Assembly: GCA_965218115.1 (NCBI GenBank)
Contig: OZ244584.1
Span: forward strand, 2,560,012-2,624,011
DNA from: Dehalococcoidia bacterium
GTDB lineage: Bacteria > Chloroflexota > Dehalococcoidia > Bin125
DNA: 64,000 bases
Direction of reading: 5' to 3'
In this document: piece after piece, positions 9,705 through 19,641 of the stretch
Layout: each line of letters starts with the position of its first letter
Position numbering within the stretch: the first letter of the stretch is position 1
The notes under the pieces: generated by a model
What the model was told of the DNA's origin: nothing
Seen by the model: the letters and a program-made list of their open reading frames with translations, nothing else
The model's database searches: none
Position numbers and translations under genes: made by a program

Positions 9705-9781
9705 TGGTAGGGCATGGGGGATTCGAACCCCCGATCTCCGCCTTGAGAGGGCGGTGTCCTGGGCCGCTAGACGAATGCCCC
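9705..9781 (-). tRNA. tRNA-Glu(CTC)
   Basis: GGGGCAT acceptor stem, anticodon arm ccgcc-ctCTCaa-ggcgg, GGTTCGAATCC T-loop, encoded CCA. Confidence 0.97.
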
Positions 9782-9796
9782 ACGTGGTGAGCGGGT

Positions 9797-9870
9797 TGGC
9801 TGGGGATGGAGGATTCGAACCCCCGCTAACTGATCCAGAGTCAGCCGTCCTACCGCTAGACTAATCCCCA
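9797..9870 (-). tRNA. tRNA-Gln(CTG)
   Basis: TGGGGAT acceptor with T1-A72, anticodon arm gctga-ctCTGga-tcagt, T-loop, encoded CCA. Confidence 0.97.
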
Positions 9871-13770: not shown

Positions 13771-14403
13771 ATGGTCGCTCAGCGACAGCCCCCTGCGGTC
13801 TCACTCGAACGATCGGCGCTCGTCTACGACGATCCGCAGCCGATCCACTTGCCTCCCGATTGGGAGCTGACGGATGAGCGGTTCCTGGAGATTGGTGAGC
13901 TCAATCCGGAGCAGTGCTTCGAGCGGACGGCCGACGGAAGGCTGCATCAGATGACCTGGCCCGACGGCCTCAGCGAGAGCGTATCGACGAAGATTCTCGC
14001 GTTCGTGACGTTCTGGGCGATGGGTAACAGCGGCGAAACGCGCGGCGAGAATGGCGGCTATTTCCTGCCCGACAGCTCTGCGCGCGGCCCCGATGTCTCG
14101 TGGGTGGATGCGGAGCAGATCGCGGAACGGGGCGGGCTGCGTGGGCAGTTCTACCTTGCTCCGCGTTTCGTCGTCGAAGTACGTTCGCCTTCGCAGACTG
14201 TCCGGGCCCAACAGTCCAAGATGCAGCACTGGGTGAGTGTCGGCGTGCAGCTTGGATGGCTGATCGATCCCTACGAGGAGATCGTCTGGATCTATCGGGG
14301 CGACGGCTCGGTCGAGCAGCTCGATCGACCCGGGGAGCTCTCCGGCGAGGATGTCTGTGTTGGGCTGTCGATCGACATGACGCGAGTCTGGGAAGCCGAT
14401 TAG
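13771..14403 (+). CDS. Uma2 family (DUF820) endonuclease-fold protein
   Basis: RGPDVSWV, APRFVVEVRSPS, GVQLGWLIDP. Confidence 0.9.
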   Translation: MVAQRQPPAVSLERSALVYDDPQPIHLPPDWELTDERFLEIGELNPEQCFERTADGRLHQMTWPDGLSESVSTKILAFVTFWAMGNSGETRGENGGYFLPDSSARGPDVSWVDAEQIAERGGLRGQFYLAPRFVVEVRSPSQTVRAQQSKMQHWVSVGVQLGWLIDPYEEIVWIYRGDGSVEQLDRPGELSGEDVCVGLSIDMTRVWEAD

Positions 14404-14427
14404 GGGTGTTCGTTGACGGTTTTGCGC

Positions 14428-14456
14428 TTGACCTGCGCTCCGGGGGGTGGCACGCT
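14428..14456 (+). promoter_or_regulatory. Putative sigma70-type promoter
   Basis: TTGACC-17 bp-CACGCT with an upstream TG; predicted start site near 14463-14465. Confidence 0.45.
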
Positions 14457-14464
14457 TCGAGGCG

Positions 14465-14551
14465 ATGATGCCTGAACGTGGAACGATGATGCGACGCGCG
14501 GCCGAGGGCCGCATGGCGATGCCCGGGGCCCTGCCCGGCCTGGCGCGCTGA
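14465..14551 (+). CDS. Putative Met-rich leader peptide MMPERGTMMRRAAEGRMAMPGALPGLAR
   Basis: 6 ATG codons in 28; the stop codon lies within the hairpin 14527-14576; upstream of a sulfur amino-acid type synthase. Confidence 0.6.
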   Translation: MMPERGTMMRRAAEGRMAMPGALPGLAR

Positions 14552-14640
14552 GCATTGCGCCGGACTGGCGAGGGCCTCCAGCACTCCCTCCACGACGGTC
14601 GGAGCGACCGCCGGCGCCCACACTCGAAAGCCCCCGCCCG

Positions 14641-15876
14641 ATGACCAACGCCACCCACCTCGCCTGTCGTGAGTGCGACCGCGAGTTCCCGCTCGATCCG
14701 CTCAACGTCTGTGATTTCTGCTTCGGCCCGCTCGAAGTCCGCTACGACCAGGGCGCCATCCAGGCCCGCGTGACGCGCGAGCTGATCGAGGCCGGCCCGC
14801 GCTCGATCTGGCGCTACAAGGACCTCCTGCCGGTCGACGACGAGTACATCGTCGACCTCGGCGTGGGCTACACGCCGCTCCAGCGCGCCGACAACCTCGC
14901 ACGCAAGCTGGGCATGCGAGAGCTGTGGATCAAGAACGACACCTGCAACCCCTCGTGGTCCTTCAAGGACCGCGTGGTGGCGGTGGCCAGCAGCCGCGCG
15001 CGACAGCATGGCTTCGAGACGCTGGCCTGCGCCTCAACGGGCAACCTGGCCAACGCCGTCTCCGCTCACGCCGCGCGCGCCGGGATGCGCGCGATCGTCT
15101 TCATCCCACACGATCTGGAGACCGGCAAGGTGCTGGGCTCGGCGATCTACAACCCGACGATCGTGTCCGTAAACGGCTCCTACGACGACGTCAACCGGCT
15201 CTGCTCGGAGCTGGCCGACAACCACGACTGGGCGTTTGTCAACATCAATGTGCGGCCCTACTACTCGGAGGGCTCGCGGACGCTCGCGTTCGAGGTCGCC
15301 GAGCAGCTGGGCTGGCAGGCGCCGCGGCAGTGCATCGCGCCGATGGCGTCCGGCTCGCTGTTCACCAAGATTCACAAGGGCTTCGAGGAGCTGCAGACCT
15401 ACGGGCTGATCGAGGAGGCCGAGGTCCGCATGATCGGCGCCCAGGCCACCGGCTGTTCGCCGATCTCGACCGCCTGGGAGAACGGCACGACCAACATCCG
15501 CCCGGTCAAGCCGAACACGATCGCCAAGAGTCTGGCGATCGGCAACCCGGCCGACGGCTACTACGCGCTCAAGACCATGGCCAAGACCGACGGCGGCGCG
15601 GCCTCGGTGAGCGACGACGAAGTGGTCGAGGGCATCCAGCTACTCGCGCAGCTGGAGGGCGTGTTCGCCGAGACGGCGGGCGGCGTCACGATCGCCGGCC
15701 TGCGCCAGGCGCTCGAACGCGGCCTGCTGGATCCCGACGAATCAACTGTCGCCTTCATCACGGGCGGCGGACTCAAGACGACGGACGCCGTCGTGCAACA
15801 CGTCACGCAGCCGATCCCGGTCGAGGGCACGCTGCAGTCGTTCGAGGACGCCTTCGCGGCGGCCGGCAAGAACTGA
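14641..15876 (+). CDS. Threonine synthase-like PLP enzyme with N-terminal Zn ribbon (probable MetM-type O-phosphohomoserine sulfhydrylase)
   Basis: CREC..CDFCFGPLEV, NPSWSFKDR, CASTGN, VNINVRPYYSEGS, AETAGGVT, TGGGLK. Confidence 0.85.
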   Translation: MTNATHLACRECDREFPLDPLNVCDFCFGPLEVRYDQGAIQARVTRELIEAGPRSIWRYKDLLPVDDEYIVDLGVGYTPLQRADNLARKLGMRELWIKNDTCNPSWSFKDRVVAVASSRARQHGFETLACASTGNLANAVSAHAARAGMRAIVFIPHDLETGKVLGSAIYNPTIVSVNGSYDDVNRLCSELADNHDWAFVNINVRPYYSEGSRTLAFEVAEQLGWQAPRQCIAPMASGSLFTKIHKGFEELQTYGLIEEAEVRMIGAQATGCSPISTAWENGTTNIRPVKPNTIAKSLAIGNPADGYYALKTMAKTDGGAASVSDDEVVEGIQLLAQLEGVFAETAGGVTIAGLRQALERGLLDPDESTVAFITGGGLKTTDAVVQHVTQPIPVEGTLQSFEDAFAAAGKN

Positions 15877-15899: not shown

Positions 15900-16142
15900 A
15901 TGGCGACCCGACGCGTCCGCTTCACATTCGAGGGCGACGCCGTGCGCGAGCCCGTGATCTACCTGCTCGGCCACGAGTTCGCGGTCGTGACCAACATCCG
16001 CATGGCCGATGTGGAGCACGAGTTCGGCTGGGTCGTGCTCGAGCTCGAGGGCGACCACGACGAGATCGACCGCAGTCTCGCCTGGGTCGAAGCCAAGGGC
16101 GTCCGCGTCGATCCCGTCTCCGGCGACGTCGTCGAGAGCTGA
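15900..16142 (+). CDS. NIL domain protein
   Basis: Real ORF is the tail of track ORF 14925..16142: MATRRVRFTF..EPVIY..TNIRMADV..GWVVLELEG; aggac RBS. Confidence 0.85.
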   Translation: MATRRVRFTFEGDAVREPVIYLLGHEFAVVTNIRMADVEHEFGWVVLELEGDHDEIDRSLAWVEAKGVRVDPVSGDVVES

Positions 16143-16219: not shown

Positions 16220-17374
16220 ATGCCAGAGCCGTTCAAGATCGAGGTCGCCGAGACCGACCTGCGCGACCTGAAGCGCCGCCTCGCGCAGACCCGCTGGCCT
16301 TCCGAAGTCGAGGACAGCGGCTGGCAATACGGCTCCAACCTCGCCTACATGAAGGAACTCTGCGAATACTGGCGGACCAGCTTCGACTGGCGCGTGCAGG
16401 AGACCTACCTGAACCGCATGCCGCAGTTCACGCAAGCGGTCAGCGCCGACGGCGTCGAGGACTACAACGTCCACTTCGTGCACCAGCAGGGCGTCGGGCC
16501 CGACCCGCTGCCGCTGGTCTTCACGCACGGCTGGCCGGGCACGTTCTACGAGGTCAGCAAGATCCTGCCCTTGCTGACCGACCCAGCGTCGCACGGCGGC
16601 GACGCGGCGGACGCGTTCACGGTCGTCGCGCCCTCGCTGCCGGGCTACGGTTTCTCTGAGATTCCAACTTCGGGCGGCTTCGGGCAGAAGCGCACGGCGT
16701 TGCTCTGGGGCGAGTTGATGAAGCAGCTCGGCTACGAGCGTTACGGCGCGCAGGGCGGCGACTGGGGCGCGATCGTCACCGCGCAGGTGGCCTATCAGCA
16801 CCCTGACAACTGCATCGGCGCGCAGATCAACATGCCGATCGGTCGCCCCCCGCAAACCGATCCGCAGACGTGGACGGACGAAGAACGATCGGTTGCGGCG
16901 CGGGCGCAGCGGTGGCAGGCACAGGAGACGGGCTACCAGGCGATTCAGGGCACCCGCCCGCAGACGCTCTCCTACGGCCTGACCGACTCACCGGCGGGTC
17001 TGGCGGGCTGGATCACCGAGAAGTGGCGCGCCTGGAGCGACTGCGACGGCGATATCGAGAAGCGCTTTAGCAAGGACGAGATTCTGACCAACATCTCGAT
17101 CTACTGGTTCTCCGCGACGATCAACAGCAGCACGCGCTACTACTACGAGATGCGCCAGCACGGGCCCGAGAATTTCCTGCCCGGGCGGCTCGAGACGCCG
17201 ACCGGATTCTCGGTCTTCCCCGGCGAGATCATCACCGCGCCGCGCAGCTGGTGCGAGCCGGGCTACAACATCACGCAGTGGTCGGAGCACGACCGCGGCG
17301 GCCACTTTGCGGCGCTCGAGGAGCCGGAGCTGTTGGCTCAGGACATCCGCGAGTTCTTCCGCCCGCTGCGCTAG
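16220..17374 (+). CDS. Epoxide hydrolase (EHN domain plus alpha/beta hydrolase)
   Basis: HGWP, PSLPGYGFS, GGDWG, DSPAGLA, GGHFAALE. Confidence 0.93.
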   Translation: MPEPFKIEVAETDLRDLKRRLAQTRWPSEVEDSGWQYGSNLAYMKELCEYWRTSFDWRVQETYLNRMPQFTQAVSADGVEDYNVHFVHQQGVGPDPLPLVFTHGWPGTFYEVSKILPLLTDPASHGGDAADAFTVVAPSLPGYGFSEIPTSGGFGQKRTALLWGELMKQLGYERYGAQGGDWGAIVTAQVAYQHPDNCIGAQINMPIGRPPQTDPQTWTDEERSVAARAQRWQAQETGYQAIQGTRPQTLSYGLTDSPAGLAGWITEKWRAWSDCDGDIEKRFSKDEILTNISIYWFSATINSSTRYYYEMRQHGPENFLPGRLETPTGFSVFPGEIITAPRSWCEPGYNITQWSEHDRGGHFAALEEPELLAQDIREFFRPLR

Positions 17375-17386
17375 TCGAGGCCGACG

Positions 17387-18592
17387 GTGGAATCTGAGCC
17401 GTTCCAGGTCGCGGTGGCCGAAGCGCCGATCGAGGCGCTGCGCGAGCGGCTGCGCGAGACACGCTGGCTGCCTGAAGTGCCGGGCTCGGAGTGGCTCTAC
17501 GGGGTTGATCGCTCATTCCTGCGCGAGCTCTGCGACTACTGGGCCGACGGCTTCAACTGGCGCGCTGCAGAGCGATTGTTGAACGCGTTCCCGCAGTACC
17601 GGATGTCGCTGGATTGCCCGAACGGTGAGACGCTCGAGATTCACTTCATCGAGCGGAGCAGCCCGCGGCCCGACGCGATTCCGCTGCTGATCCAGCACGG
17701 CTGGCCTTCGTCGGTGTTCGAGTTCTACAAGCTGATCGATCGCCTGGCGGAGCCCGAAGATTCGAACGCCCCCGCGTTCCATGTCGTGGCGCCCTCGCTG
17801 CCCGGCTACGGCTGGTCGCAAATTCCGCGGCGGCGCGGCGTGGGGCCGCCGGCGATCGCCGACATGTGGGTGCAGCTGATGGAGGGTCTCGGCTACGAGC
17901 GGTTCGCCTACCACGGCGGCGACTGGGGCGCGGCGGTTGGCGGCCAGCTCGGCCTACGCCATGAGTCACGGCTGCGCGGGTTGCATCTGACCGCCGCGGC
18001 GCTCGGGCCTGCCGGCGCCGCAGCGCGGCCGCAGTCCGAGGCGGAGCGGCGCTTCTTCCGCGATGAGCAGGCGCCGTACGTGCGCGACGACGCGGCGCAC
18101 CGCGCGATCCACGGCACGCGCTTCCAGACGCTCTCGTATGGTCTCGCCGACTCCCCCGCCGGGCTGGCCGCGTGGCTGGTCGACAAGTGGTGGATGCTGA
18201 GCGACTGCATGACGCCGGCGGAAGCGCCGCGCGGCGGAGATGTGCTGCGGCGTTTCACGATGGACGAGCTGCTCACGACGATCTCGATCTACTGGTTCAC
18301 GGAGACGATCAACTCCTCGATGCGGATCTACCACGAGGCGCCGCGTCCGGCGGCGACGGTCGAAGCCGAGGTTGGCGGTCAGGTGGCGCTGCGCGCCGGT
18401 CAGCGGGTGGGCGCGGCGACCGGGATCGTGCGGCTGGTGCGCGGCACGCCGCTGCCGCCGCGCAGCTGGTGCGAGCGCGCGTTCAATGTCGTGCACTGGA
18501 CCGAGTTCCCGGCCGGCGGCCACTTCCCGGCCATGGAGGAGCCCGAACTGCTACTGGCCGACATCCGATCGTTCTTCGCGCAGCACGCATGA
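17387..18592 (+). CDS. Epoxide hydrolase paralogue
   Basis: HGWP, GGDWG, DSPAGLA, GGHFPAME. Confidence 0.9.
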   Translation: MESEPFQVAVAEAPIEALRERLRETRWLPEVPGSEWLYGVDRSFLRELCDYWADGFNWRAAERLLNAFPQYRMSLDCPNGETLEIHFIERSSPRPDAIPLLIQHGWPSSVFEFYKLIDRLAEPEDSNAPAFHVVAPSLPGYGWSQIPRRRGVGPPAIADMWVQLMEGLGYERFAYHGGDWGAAVGGQLGLRHESRLRGLHLTAAALGPAGAAARPQSEAERRFFRDEQAPYVRDDAAHRAIHGTRFQTLSYGLADSPAGLAAWLVDKWWMLSDCMTPAEAPRGGDVLRRFTMDELLTTISIYWFTETINSSMRIYHEAPRPAATVEAEVGGQVALRAGQRVGAATGIVRLVRGTPLPPRSWCERAFNVVHWTEFPAGGHFPAMEEPELLLADIRSFFAQHA

Positions 18593-19641
18593 CCCCGCAC
18601 CGACTGTGCTGCCTGCGCTGCGACGCGACCTCCGAGCCGACGCTGGCGCTGAACTGCGGCGAGTGCGGCGGTCTGTTTCGCGTCGAGCATGCGGAGCCGC
18701 CTTCCGCCGCGGGCCCGCGCCTGCCATGGGCGGCGGTCACGCTGGGCGAGGGCGACACGCCGCTCGTGCGCGTCGAACTCGAGGGTGGCTTCTGGGCGAA
18801 GCTCGAGTTCCGGGCGCCCACCGGCTCGTTCAAGGATCGCGGCGCGGCGATCCTGATCGGGGCGGCGCGGGAGTTCGGGGTGCGCGAGTTCGTTGAGGAC
18901 TCGTCGGGCAACGCCGGCGCAGCGCTCGCCGCCTACGGCAGCAGCGTGGGGATGCGGGCGCACATCTTCCTGCCCGCCGACGCGCCACGCATGAAGCTGG
19001 CCAAGATCGAGCGCCGGGGCGTGCCGCACCCTGTCGCGGGGTCGCGCGCTGCCGCTTCCGCCGCCGCGCAGCGTTTCGCCGCCGAGCGCGGGCTGCCGTT
19101 CCTCTCACACAATCTCAGCCCCTACTTCGCCGAGGGGATGAAGGCGGTCGTGTGGGAGCTGCTCGAGCGGCTGGGCGCGCCGCCCGACCACATCGTGCTG
19201 CCGGTCGGCAACGGCTCGCTGCTGCTGGGCCTCCAGCGCGGCTTCGAGGAACTCCTGGCGATCGGCAGACTCGAGCGGCTGCCCAGGCTGCACGCCGCGC
19301 AGTCCGAGTCGGTCGAGCCGCTGGTCGCCGCCGTGAACGGCCGAGCGGCGCGCCCCGCGACGGCGACCGTCGCGGACGGCATCGCCGTCGCGTCGCCCCC
19401 GCGGCTCGACGAGATGGTCGCAGCGAGCCGCAGCAGCGGCGGCACGGCGATCGCCGTCCCCGAAGCGGCGATCCTCGATGCGCAGCGCGTGCTCGCCGAA
19501 CACGACCTCGCCTGCGAACCCACCTCCGCGGTCCCCCTGGTCGCACTCAGGCAGCTCCGCGAGCGCGGCGTGATCGCCGATGCGGACCAGGTCGTCCTCC
19601 CGCTCACGGGGGCTGCGCTGGGCGGGGACGGCCACATCTGA
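18589..19641 (+). CDS. Threonine synthase-like PLP-dependent enzyme
   Basis: CLRC..CGECG, TLGEGDTP, PTGSFKDRG, DSSGNAG, PVGNG, EPTSA; ATGA overlap with the upstream gene. Confidence 0.85.
   Translation: MTPHRLCCLRCDATSEPTLALNCGECGGLFRVEHAEPPSAAGPRLPWAAVTLGEGDTPLVRVELEGGFWAKLEFRAPTGSFKDRGAAILIGAAREFGVREFVEDSSGNAGAALAAYGSSVGMRAHIFLPADAPRMKLAKIERRGVPHPVAGSRAAASAAAQRFAAERGLPFLSHNLSPYFAEGMKAVVWELLERLGAPPDHIVLPVGNGSLLLGLQRGFEELLAIGRLERLPRLHAAQSESVEPLVAAVNGRAARPATATVADGIAVASPPRLDEMVAASRSSGGTAIAVPEAAILDAQRVLAEHDLACEPTSAVPLVALRQLRERGVIADADQVVLPLTGAALGGDGHI

Follow-up and report, generated by a model that had tools for sequence, protein, structure and literature searches.

What controls a putative methionine operon in whose leader the S-adenosylmethionine (SAM) riboswitch that serves its relatives is not found? 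The question is raised by a 64,000-nucleotide (nt) stretch of the Dehalococcoidia bacterium assembly GCA_965218115.1 (Bacteria; Chloroflexota; Dehalococcoidia; Bin125; contig OZ244584.1, positions 2,560,012 to 2,624,011 of the forward strand), called the window below, where a small methionine-rich open reading frame (ORF) and a stable hairpin stand ahead of a gene pair resembling metM and metO. A sequence-only reading of the window had proposed a methionine-sensing leader peptide at this place, working through alternative RNA pairings and replacing the riboswitch. Judged from the sequences of many relatives, we consider it fairly probable that the element is a ribosome-mediated, Met-tRNA-sensing attenuator ahead of the metM/metO-like operon. 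The evidence throughout is comparative and thermodynamic, and start sites were assigned by heuristics.

The argument is carried mainly by what is kept in the leader while the rest of it drifts. In 41 genomes searched at the protein level, 24 family loci with sequence available upstream were recovered, and each of them has a small ORF whose core reads M-[A/G]-M-[P/R]. The public species set contributed 47 further close loci, of which one was incomplete and the other 46 all carry the ORF, including M-V-M, M-M-M and M-L-M forms (loci L078-L110 were screened with the narrow regular expression only). When reduced to unique sequences, 57 of 57 family leaders contain M-x-M. The ORF itself extends over 17 to 43 codons in these leaders and its N-terminal peptide is not conserved; close relatives differ in ORF length by multiples of 3 (28 versus 37 codons, and 23 versus 27 and 31), synonymous changes occur beside the core (CGC/CGA, ACA/ACG), and the stretch from start to core is free of stop codons in all leaders. 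The detector of the ORF requires a hairpin and is therefore biased toward the pattern counted. Methionine is concentrated upstream of the core, where it makes up 69 of the 637 codons in 48 unique family peptides (10.8%, 5.8-fold above the genome background of 1.87% obtained from 1709 long ORFs), and in the same peptides none was found after it. A SAM-I riboswitch was detected in 0 of 9 genomes of the genus, and in the eight family genomes which possess one it lies on a different contig or at a great distance from the metM-like gene.

The second constant is the distance from the core to the hairpin. In all family leaders a GC-rich hairpin begins 5-8 nt past the A of the second core Met codon (Met2), with a solid stem from +8, and when the base at +8 was forced to pair every one of the 57 leaders gave a hairpin of -20 to -46 kcal/mol. 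The stem sequences vary between genera with the pairing kept: in an alignment made with MAFFT (A1), for which the outer stem scored for covariation was supplied by hand, the outer 5 bp are paired in 158/158 cells, compensatory changes are seen at three of these five pairs, and the covariation score was reached by 0 of 500 shuffles. An RNAalifold consensus on the same alignment was set aside, as it returned just a 3-pair artefact with short and long hairpins misaligned. The position of the stop codon of the upstream ORF (uORF) ranges between +6 and +66, counted from Met2, and since it drifts and the offset from Met2 to the hairpin is fixed, the conserved geometry is that of Met2 to hairpin, not that of stop to hairpin.

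At the locus (Table 1) the ORF runs from the ATG at 14465 to the TGA at 14549-14551, a GTG at 14447 being the alternative opening in the ORF listing, and 89 nt separate its stop from the ThrC-like gene. The coordinates and features named by the sequence-only reading all agree with the sequence: six Met (codons starting at 14465, 14468, 14486, 14489, 14513 and 14519), one Thr and no Ile in the 28 codons of MMPERGTMMRRAAEGRMAMPGALPGLAR; the segments agggcc (14505-10 and 14571-76), ggccct (14527-32), gaggg (14570-74) and ccctc (14586-90); a stop codon inside the hairpin, which the minimum free energy fold (14525/14527-14576/14578) places within the apical loop; and the absence of a U-tract, as no T-run follows the hairpin here or in the family leaders inspected and a terminator scan of 14300-14800 gave 0 sites. 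Five non-initiator Met in 27 codons represent an excess (binomial P = 1.3e-4). The whole 201-nt leader folds no better than its shuffles (z = -0.47). All 55 stand-alone family leaders have an in-frame ATG with no Shine-Dalgarno (SD) sequence and, ending 5-11 nt ahead of this ATG, a -10-like NANNNT hexamer, which fits leaderless mRNA, and the ORF at 14465 is probably leaderless as well, the transcription start being an inferred one.

Table 1. Features of the metM/metO-like leader and operon (positions in the window)
Feature	Position	Strand	Basis or remark
Promoter-like TTGACC (14428-33) / 17 nt / CACGCT (14451-56)	14428..14456	+	ATG 8 nt downstream
Leader ORF, 28 codons + TGA, MMPERGTMMRRAAEGRMAMPGALPGLAR	14465..14551	+	In-frame conservation; variable length in relatives
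Extra Met-Met pair, codons 8-9	14486..14491	+	Codon 2 (14468-70) likewise Met
Core ATG-GCG-ATG, Met17-Ala18-Met19, presumed sensing codons	14513..14521	+	Invariant M-x-M in relatives
Stable hairpin	14527..14576	+	First pair 8 nt past A of second core Met codon; uORF stop in loop
C-rich, G-poor, weakly structured spacer, candidate Rho loading region	14577..14640	+	Composition, folding
ThrC-like pyridoxal-phosphate enzyme with N-terminal Cys-rich segment, metM-like	14641..15876	+	Pfam PALP 3.5e-70; NCBIfam thrC TIGR00260 279 bits
80-residue NIL-domain protein, metO-like partner	15900..16142	+	Pfam NIL 6.6e-16; begins 23 nt after metM-like gene

The element is found once per genome and at the metM/metO-like operon only. 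Neither a regular-expression scan nor a hairpin scan nor the covariance model R1 detected further copies in this genome, and among its 84 small-frame sites with ATGNNNATG plus a hairpin (3.15 Mb) the hairpin of the metM leader is the most stable (-37.1 kcal/mol). From the R1 matches outside metM leaders 24 were examined, 12 of them in context; three precede a metM-like gene (in G043, G091 and G113), and the match in G039 is the metM leader L028, already in the set. The remaining matches inspected lay in long open frames or had no metM-like gene, and were treated as chance. Read-through or frameshifting of the uORF into an ATGA overlap at the metM start was also considered and rejected, since the distance from stop to metM is 0, 1 or 2 modulo 3 among relatives, so that the in-frame TGA of this genome is due to chance.

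The importance of the core became clearer from the survey of the whole class, in which a metM-like gene (E <= 1e-100) was found in 276 of 401 genomes, a tally including the unpublished genome G262. The 450 nt upstream of 115 listed places outside the family were searched for the ORF and, with an nhmmer profile built from 6 verified seeds, for SAM-I; an Rfam check of the SAM-I calls was positive at 20/20 tandem loci and at 0/20 loci with the ORF only. An M-x-M ORF is present in 74 of the 115 leaders, being accompanied by SAM-I in 41 and alone in 33, plus one doubtful case; SAM-I alone was found in 31 (26 with a T-run), another pseudoknot-like element in 3, and nothing in 6. One of these six is a missed ORF, L237 having been scored 'none' in spite of carrying it, hence the class counts are lower bounds. 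The hairpin offset is +7/+8 in 67 of the 74 leaders. The middle residue of M-x-M is A in 39, V in 23, F in 8 and another in 5 (A, V or F in 70), and Met2 is followed by P (21), R (17), L (16), S (9), T (5), A (5) or Q (2). Where a start codon follows an SD sequence, its frame is that of M-x-M in 50 of the 74 leaders; the two remaining frames account for 4 and 5. As far as these sequences go, universality is limited to the pair of Met codons, the distance between them and the position of the hairpin; peptide, length and stop vary.

The M-x-M ORF occurs in three settings, namely alone, after a SAM-I aptamer with no terminator, and after SAM-I with a U-tract terminator. Between aptamer and core a T-run is present in 16 of the 41 tandem leaders, and in those inspected the ORF begins just past it. 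The terminator-less tandems show CGCUCC after the aptamer, then a strong SD sequence and an ORF of 11-14 codons ending in M-x-M-X-stop, and most of the short tandem ORFs inspected have no extra Met codons. The retention of the M-x-M ORF both behind a complete terminator-type riboswitch and where the riboswitch is absent marks it as a regulatory unit of its own: by its sequence distribution it is a separate module, which in this SAM-I-less family stands alone. The presence of extra Met codons upstream of the core in this family, and their lack in most tandem ORFs, fits a selection for Met-codon number. It follows that the simple replacement of the SAM riboswitch by the sensor, as first proposed, does not hold, since 41 of 115 class leaders have the same ORF downstream of a SAM-I aptamer. 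It was also observed that tandem leaders (L147, L152, L164, L166) have a conserved GGCCCAYGCGGA between the SAM-I aptamer and the SD sequence of the uORF, complementary to the UGGGCC of the Leu-Gly-Arg codons directly before M-x-M; this complementarity may explain the nucleotide conservation of GGGCCG.

Outside the class, 60 leaders from other Chloroflexota classes were distributed between SAM-I only (33), SAM-I plus ORF (3), ORF only (3) and nothing found by the SAM-I, ORF and pseudoknot screens (21). A T-box core is present in 8 of the 60 (L286, L256, L257, L258, L272, L281, L285 and L294), seven of them among the 21 'nothing found' leaders and L258 from the SAM-I only group. The T-box of L286 (117-404, 98.9 bits) is the one above the Rfam cut-off, and its specifier loop reads as AUG (Met). 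L258, with a SAM-I profile match and a T-box core, may be a tandem of the two.

These controls on orthologues contribute also to the identification of the pathway. In Streptomyces, MetM is described as a ThrC-like homocysteine synthase with the small carrier MetO, behind a SAM riboswitch (PMC13759103, PMC12172450, citing Hasebe et al. 2024). The ThrC-like/NIL pair of the window looks like MetM/MetO by analogy, its methionine role being deduced partly from the SAM-I and Met T-box control of its orthologues; the two genes are neighbours at all 110 related loci. The genome has three more ThrC-like matches, and the C-terminus of the 80-residue NIL protein is ...VVES, not Gly-Gly. Since orthologues lie behind SAM-I or a Met-specifier T-box, methionine/SAM and the charging of tRNA-Met are natural inputs for the metM-like gene.

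Combining the fixed geometry with these inputs, the attenuator could work in the following way. The short, probably leaderless ORF would stand at the 5' end of the metM/metO-like mRNA and be translated there; when Met-tRNA(Met) is scarce the ribosome would wait, its A site occupied by the first or the second core AUG. An RNA duplex can remain intact from position +11 or so of the P-site codon, which is +8 when Met2 occupies the A site; the hairpin thus begins at the downstream edge of such a ribosome, and the stalled ribosome would leave it folded, while a ribosome advancing past Met2 would have to unwind it, starting at the next translocation. A parked ribosome with an intact hairpin would then be the ON state, and the absence of a ribosome, or one that has run through, the OFF state. 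As there is no U-tract terminator here, OFF would be reached either by Rho-dependent termination or by poor initiation in the C-rich spacer. The spacer has C 0.50 and G 0.26 (family means 0.46 and 0.22), a skew matched by just 2.4% of 60-nt windows upstream of long ORFs; native family spacers are less structured than their own shuffles (mean z +1.29), and a weak SD-like GAAAG stands at 14626-14630, where GAAAG-type sites are typical of family spacer ends. A gene for Rho is encoded in the genome (574 bits). For this genome we infer that the ORF is translated, that ribosomes stall on it, in which direction the operon responds and at which step the output is set.

Several results weigh against this scheme. 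Rho-dependent attenuation, the favoured output, rests on the composition of the spacer and the presence of the Rho gene. No specific OFF structure emerged: pairing of the 3' arm with the spacer in the family is no better than in shuffles (mean z 0.04), and pairing of the uORF with the spacer equals that of shuffles (19.6 versus 19.5 pairs), the native being less stable, so that a long-range helix between uORF and spacer was rejected as a specific structure. The unpaired probability of the metM start region, modelled in 57 leaders, is 0.50 in the free RNA, 0.53 in the stalled state and 0.53 with the ribosome at the stop, and sequestration of the SD sequence relieved by stalling was rejected for this reason. 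Some relatives have no elongator Met codons other than those of the core, always one codon apart, and this fixed spacing is left unexplained by a plain hunger sensor. In L018 and L022 the ORF extends to 14-23 nt before the metM start, which could mean that full translation is positively coupled to metM, the opposite direction. The promoter proposed by the sequence-only reading is present as two hexamers followed by an ATG, but a sigma-70 consensus scan called 0 promoters at the leader, and CACGCT agrees with TATAAT at A2 and T6 only; the leader's own promoter would be weak by the Escherichia coli consensus. Finally the relatives share ancestry, and the counts overstate their independence.

With these results the earlier proposal can be separated into its parts. 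A Met-sensing leader ORF with a hairpin has strong comparative support from M-x-M, from covariation and from orthologues under SAM-I or T-box control, but the details of replacement, pairing and Met-richness were not upheld. The alignment of orthologues that had been suggested as a check shows the conserved ORF and a covarying hairpin, yet Met-richness is not general, some leaders having only two elongator Met. The 1:2 pairing (14505-10 with 14527-32) needs a GGGCC segment that is missing from several lineages retaining M-x-M, and the 3:4 pairing of gaggg with ccctc is no better than shuffled controls.

The alternative that survives best, though we regard it as unlikely, is that a translated uORF and a hairpin tune expression with no methionine specificity, as a stabiliser of the 5' end of the mRNA or as a general gauge of translation, the Met codons being incidental. 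Stalled ribosomes and 5' hairpins are known to stabilise mRNA (ermC), the hairpin is very stable on its own, and neither an OFF structure nor a change of accessibility could be modelled. Against it stand the exact M-x-M, invariant across more than 130 leaders while all else drifts, the confinement of the Met enrichment to the region upstream of the core, the exclusive association of the element with one Met-pathway operon, and the finding of SAM-I and a Met T-box in its place on orthologues.

Only slightly less credit, and still little, can be given to the possibility that M-x-M and the abutting hairpin form a minimal programmed-arrest site and not a hunger sensor, the ribosome, with AUG in its E and A sites and up against the helix, being kept there or let go by free methionine, SAM or uncharged tRNA-Met, and metM being expressed only from ribosomes that get through. 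In the corresponding roadblock version, which we find similarly doubtful, coupling would be positive: ribosomes passing M-x-M and opening the hairpin would be needed for the expression of metM, and a stall that the hairpin and the nascent M-x-M peptide impose, and that free methionine or SAM may reinforce, would shut the operon when the product is plentiful. The terminator-less SAM-I tandems speak for such a coupling, as the CGCUCC after their aptamer is anti-SD-like and a strong SD sequence precedes the ORF; SAM would shut uORF translation in these translational tandems, and an untranslated uORF should therefore mean OFF. The stop codon directly follows M-x-M-X in 30 of 74 class leaders, and in TnaC an arrest peptide acts at termination; the ORFs of L018 and L022 end beside the ribosome-binding site of metM, the spacer avoids structure, and the spacing of the hairpin resembles that of stall-enhancing structures. 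However, the residue following M-x-M, the residue x and the upstream peptide are all unconserved, and the ligand-sensing arrest peptides known to us need longer conserved segments. The extra Met residues at variable positions fit the sensing of codons and not a peptide motif, starvation for methionine would also stall the ribosomes and turn a biosynthetic operon off, and the distance from the uORF stop to metM is mostly 50-140 nt, long for reinitiation. The terminator layout of two leaders from another family of the phylum, L296 and L304, predicts that stalling leads to read-through.

The last alternative, an untranslated structured RNA (a riboswitch, or a binding site for a protein or tRNA) with AUGNNNAUG and the hairpin as its recognition element and the ORF as a by-product of high GC, is very improbable: the nucleotide conservation around the core (GGGCCGCAUGGCGAUGCC) does exceed the needs of the peptide in many genera, the lack of an Rfam match leaves room for an undescribed RNA, and an RNA that binds tRNA would be expected to present AUG, the Met codon, but the start codons are locked to one frame (50 versus 9), a -10-like hexamer is placed ahead of the in-frame ATG throughout the stand-alone leaders, indels come in multiples of 3, synonymous changes occur next to the core, M-x-M persists in several lineages devoid of GGGCC, and in all leaders the stretch from start to core is free of stops.

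Returning to the Met-tRNA-sensing attenuator, the arrangement of L296 and L304 deserves a closer description. Both have a leaderless-looking ORF (...M-I-M-R-R-G-G..., ending ...MIMRRGGFRT), and the 3' arm of the hairpin overlaps the 5' arm of a U-tract terminator which also covers the SD sequence of metM. In the folding of L296 a ribosome footprint at Met2 gave the antiterminator, and the free RNA or a ribosome at the stop gave the terminator; L304 behaved in the same direction, with a shortened stem left in the stalled fold. The terminator scan called the site in L304 and not in L296, whose 9-nt loop exceeds the limit of 8 of the tool. In this model stalling gives read-through, the textbook logic of attenuation, which makes the arrangement a candidate methionine attenuator.

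It should be considered how the element compares with known systems. In trpL, hisL, thrL, leuL and pheL, the classical leader-peptide transcription attenuators, the stalled ribosome selects between RNA folds. The present leader resembles them in having a short ORF ahead of an amino-acid operon with cognate codons just upstream of a hairpin, and in L296 and L304 the M-x-M ORF is even wired to a U-tract terminator. It differs in the amino acid, in having always M-x-M rather than a run of codons, in being probably leaderless, and, in this genome, in the lack of a terminator or of a demonstrable 1:2 / 3:4 alternative. In tnaC, speFL and mgtL, which are Rho-dependent uORF attenuators, the stalled ribosome masks or refolds a Rho utilisation (rut) site; common to them and to this leader are the uORF, the lack of an intrinsic terminator, the C-rich unstructured region that follows and an encoded Rho, whereas here the hairpin stands between the stall site and the C-rich spacer, and refolding could not be demonstrated. 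To our knowledge methionine is a conspicuous gap in leader-peptide attenuation, its genes being described with MetJ-type repressors, SAM riboswitches or T-boxes, and neither a leader with methionine codons nor this element was found described in open-access full texts and on bioRxiv.

The closest match is offered by the poly-Cys leaderless short ORFs of mycobacteria, in which the stalled ribosome is reported to prevent a duplex that would otherwise conceal the ribosome-binding site downstream (Canestrari et al., bioRxiv 10.1101/834739). In both cases a leaderless sensory first cistron would head an amino-acid operon with no intrinsic terminator, and as few as two cognate codons suffice there, as they would here. 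In the model, however, the accessibility of the metM start did not change, that is, the duplex over the ribosome-binding site which characterises the mycobacterial system as reported was not recovered, and the present element belongs to Chloroflexota, concerns methionine, and occupies one locus per genome instead of a multi-locus set. The tandems of SAM-I and M-x-M ORF in relatives recall metE/ppe2 of Mycobacterium tuberculosis, described as a riboswitch upstream of a short translated ORF that modulates the downstream gene (Kipkorir et al., PMC11260477); the ligand is B12 there, ppe2 shows overlapping termination-reinitiation, and the abstract of that paper contains no cognate-codon sensing.

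Comparison with the RNA sensors of the same pathway is more direct. SAM-I (RF00162) controls the orthologous gene in relatives and responds to the end product of the same pathway, but the sensor here would be a translated ORF, one that stands in series with SAM-I in the tandem leaders of the class; no Rfam match, SAM-I included, was obtained in 14300-14760 at the gathering score or at E up to 10. The Met T-box, which governs the orthologous gene in other classes of Chloroflexota, likewise senses the charging of tRNA-Met, but it binds the tRNA directly and without translation; a T-box core sequence was found neither in this leader nor in the 115 class leaders.

Some further observations concern the surroundings of the metM-like genes. 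A group of metM-like genes (about 60-63% identity; loci L080, L085, L093, L097, L109 and L110, also L234, L242, L249 and L252) is preceded by a conserved hairpin, GCGCGG-AGUAGGCKAAC-CCGCGC, situated about 60-90 nt before the match at 1501, and at 358 in L109. Its GCGCGG...CCGCGC stem covaries between sequences, its GGCKAAC loop can pair with a GUUGCC that follows the SD sequence and precedes the start codon, so that an H-type pseudoknot would cover the ribosome-binding site, and no Rfam match was obtained for it at the gathering score or at E up to 1; by its sequence it may be an undescribed SAM-type riboswitch. In the window a Uma2-family putative endonuclease gene (13771-14403, plus strand) ends 25 nt ahead of the promoter-like site, and the end of such a gene is also found upstream of the leader in relatives from different genera (e.g. 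L005, L008 and L010-L012), which indicates that the junction is old. A second PALP/ThrC-like ORF lies 2.3 kb downstream (18172-19641, plus strand; 489 residues, about 185 of them ahead of the domain), and its true start may be later than listed; two tandem epoxide-hydrolase-like genes (16220-17374 and 17387-18592) stand between both ThrC-like ORFs. Two adjoining tRNA genes were recognised at 9708-9870 on the minus strand (Rfam, 63 bits each).

The proposed attenuator would be a ribosome-based sensor of precise geometry on a gene that relatives control by SAM-I or a Met T-box, and it suggests that what is conserved at the core of an attenuator can be a fixed codon-to-hairpin spacing instead of a terminator. 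If the programmed-arrest interpretation were the true one, a biosynthetic pathway would have its own bacterial equivalent of the arrest peptides that sense ligands, and many relatives would have it connected in series with SAM-I. As an attenuator it might serve as a compact natural part for methionine-responsive expression. Its position in series with SAM-I suggests a two-input gate, requiring low SAM and low Met-tRNA, and the SAM-I-less family would show a route by which a lineage can lose the riboswitch yet keep and reinforce the codon sensor. For the abundant uncultured Dehalococcoidia it would provide a regulatory handle on a recently described route to homocysteine.

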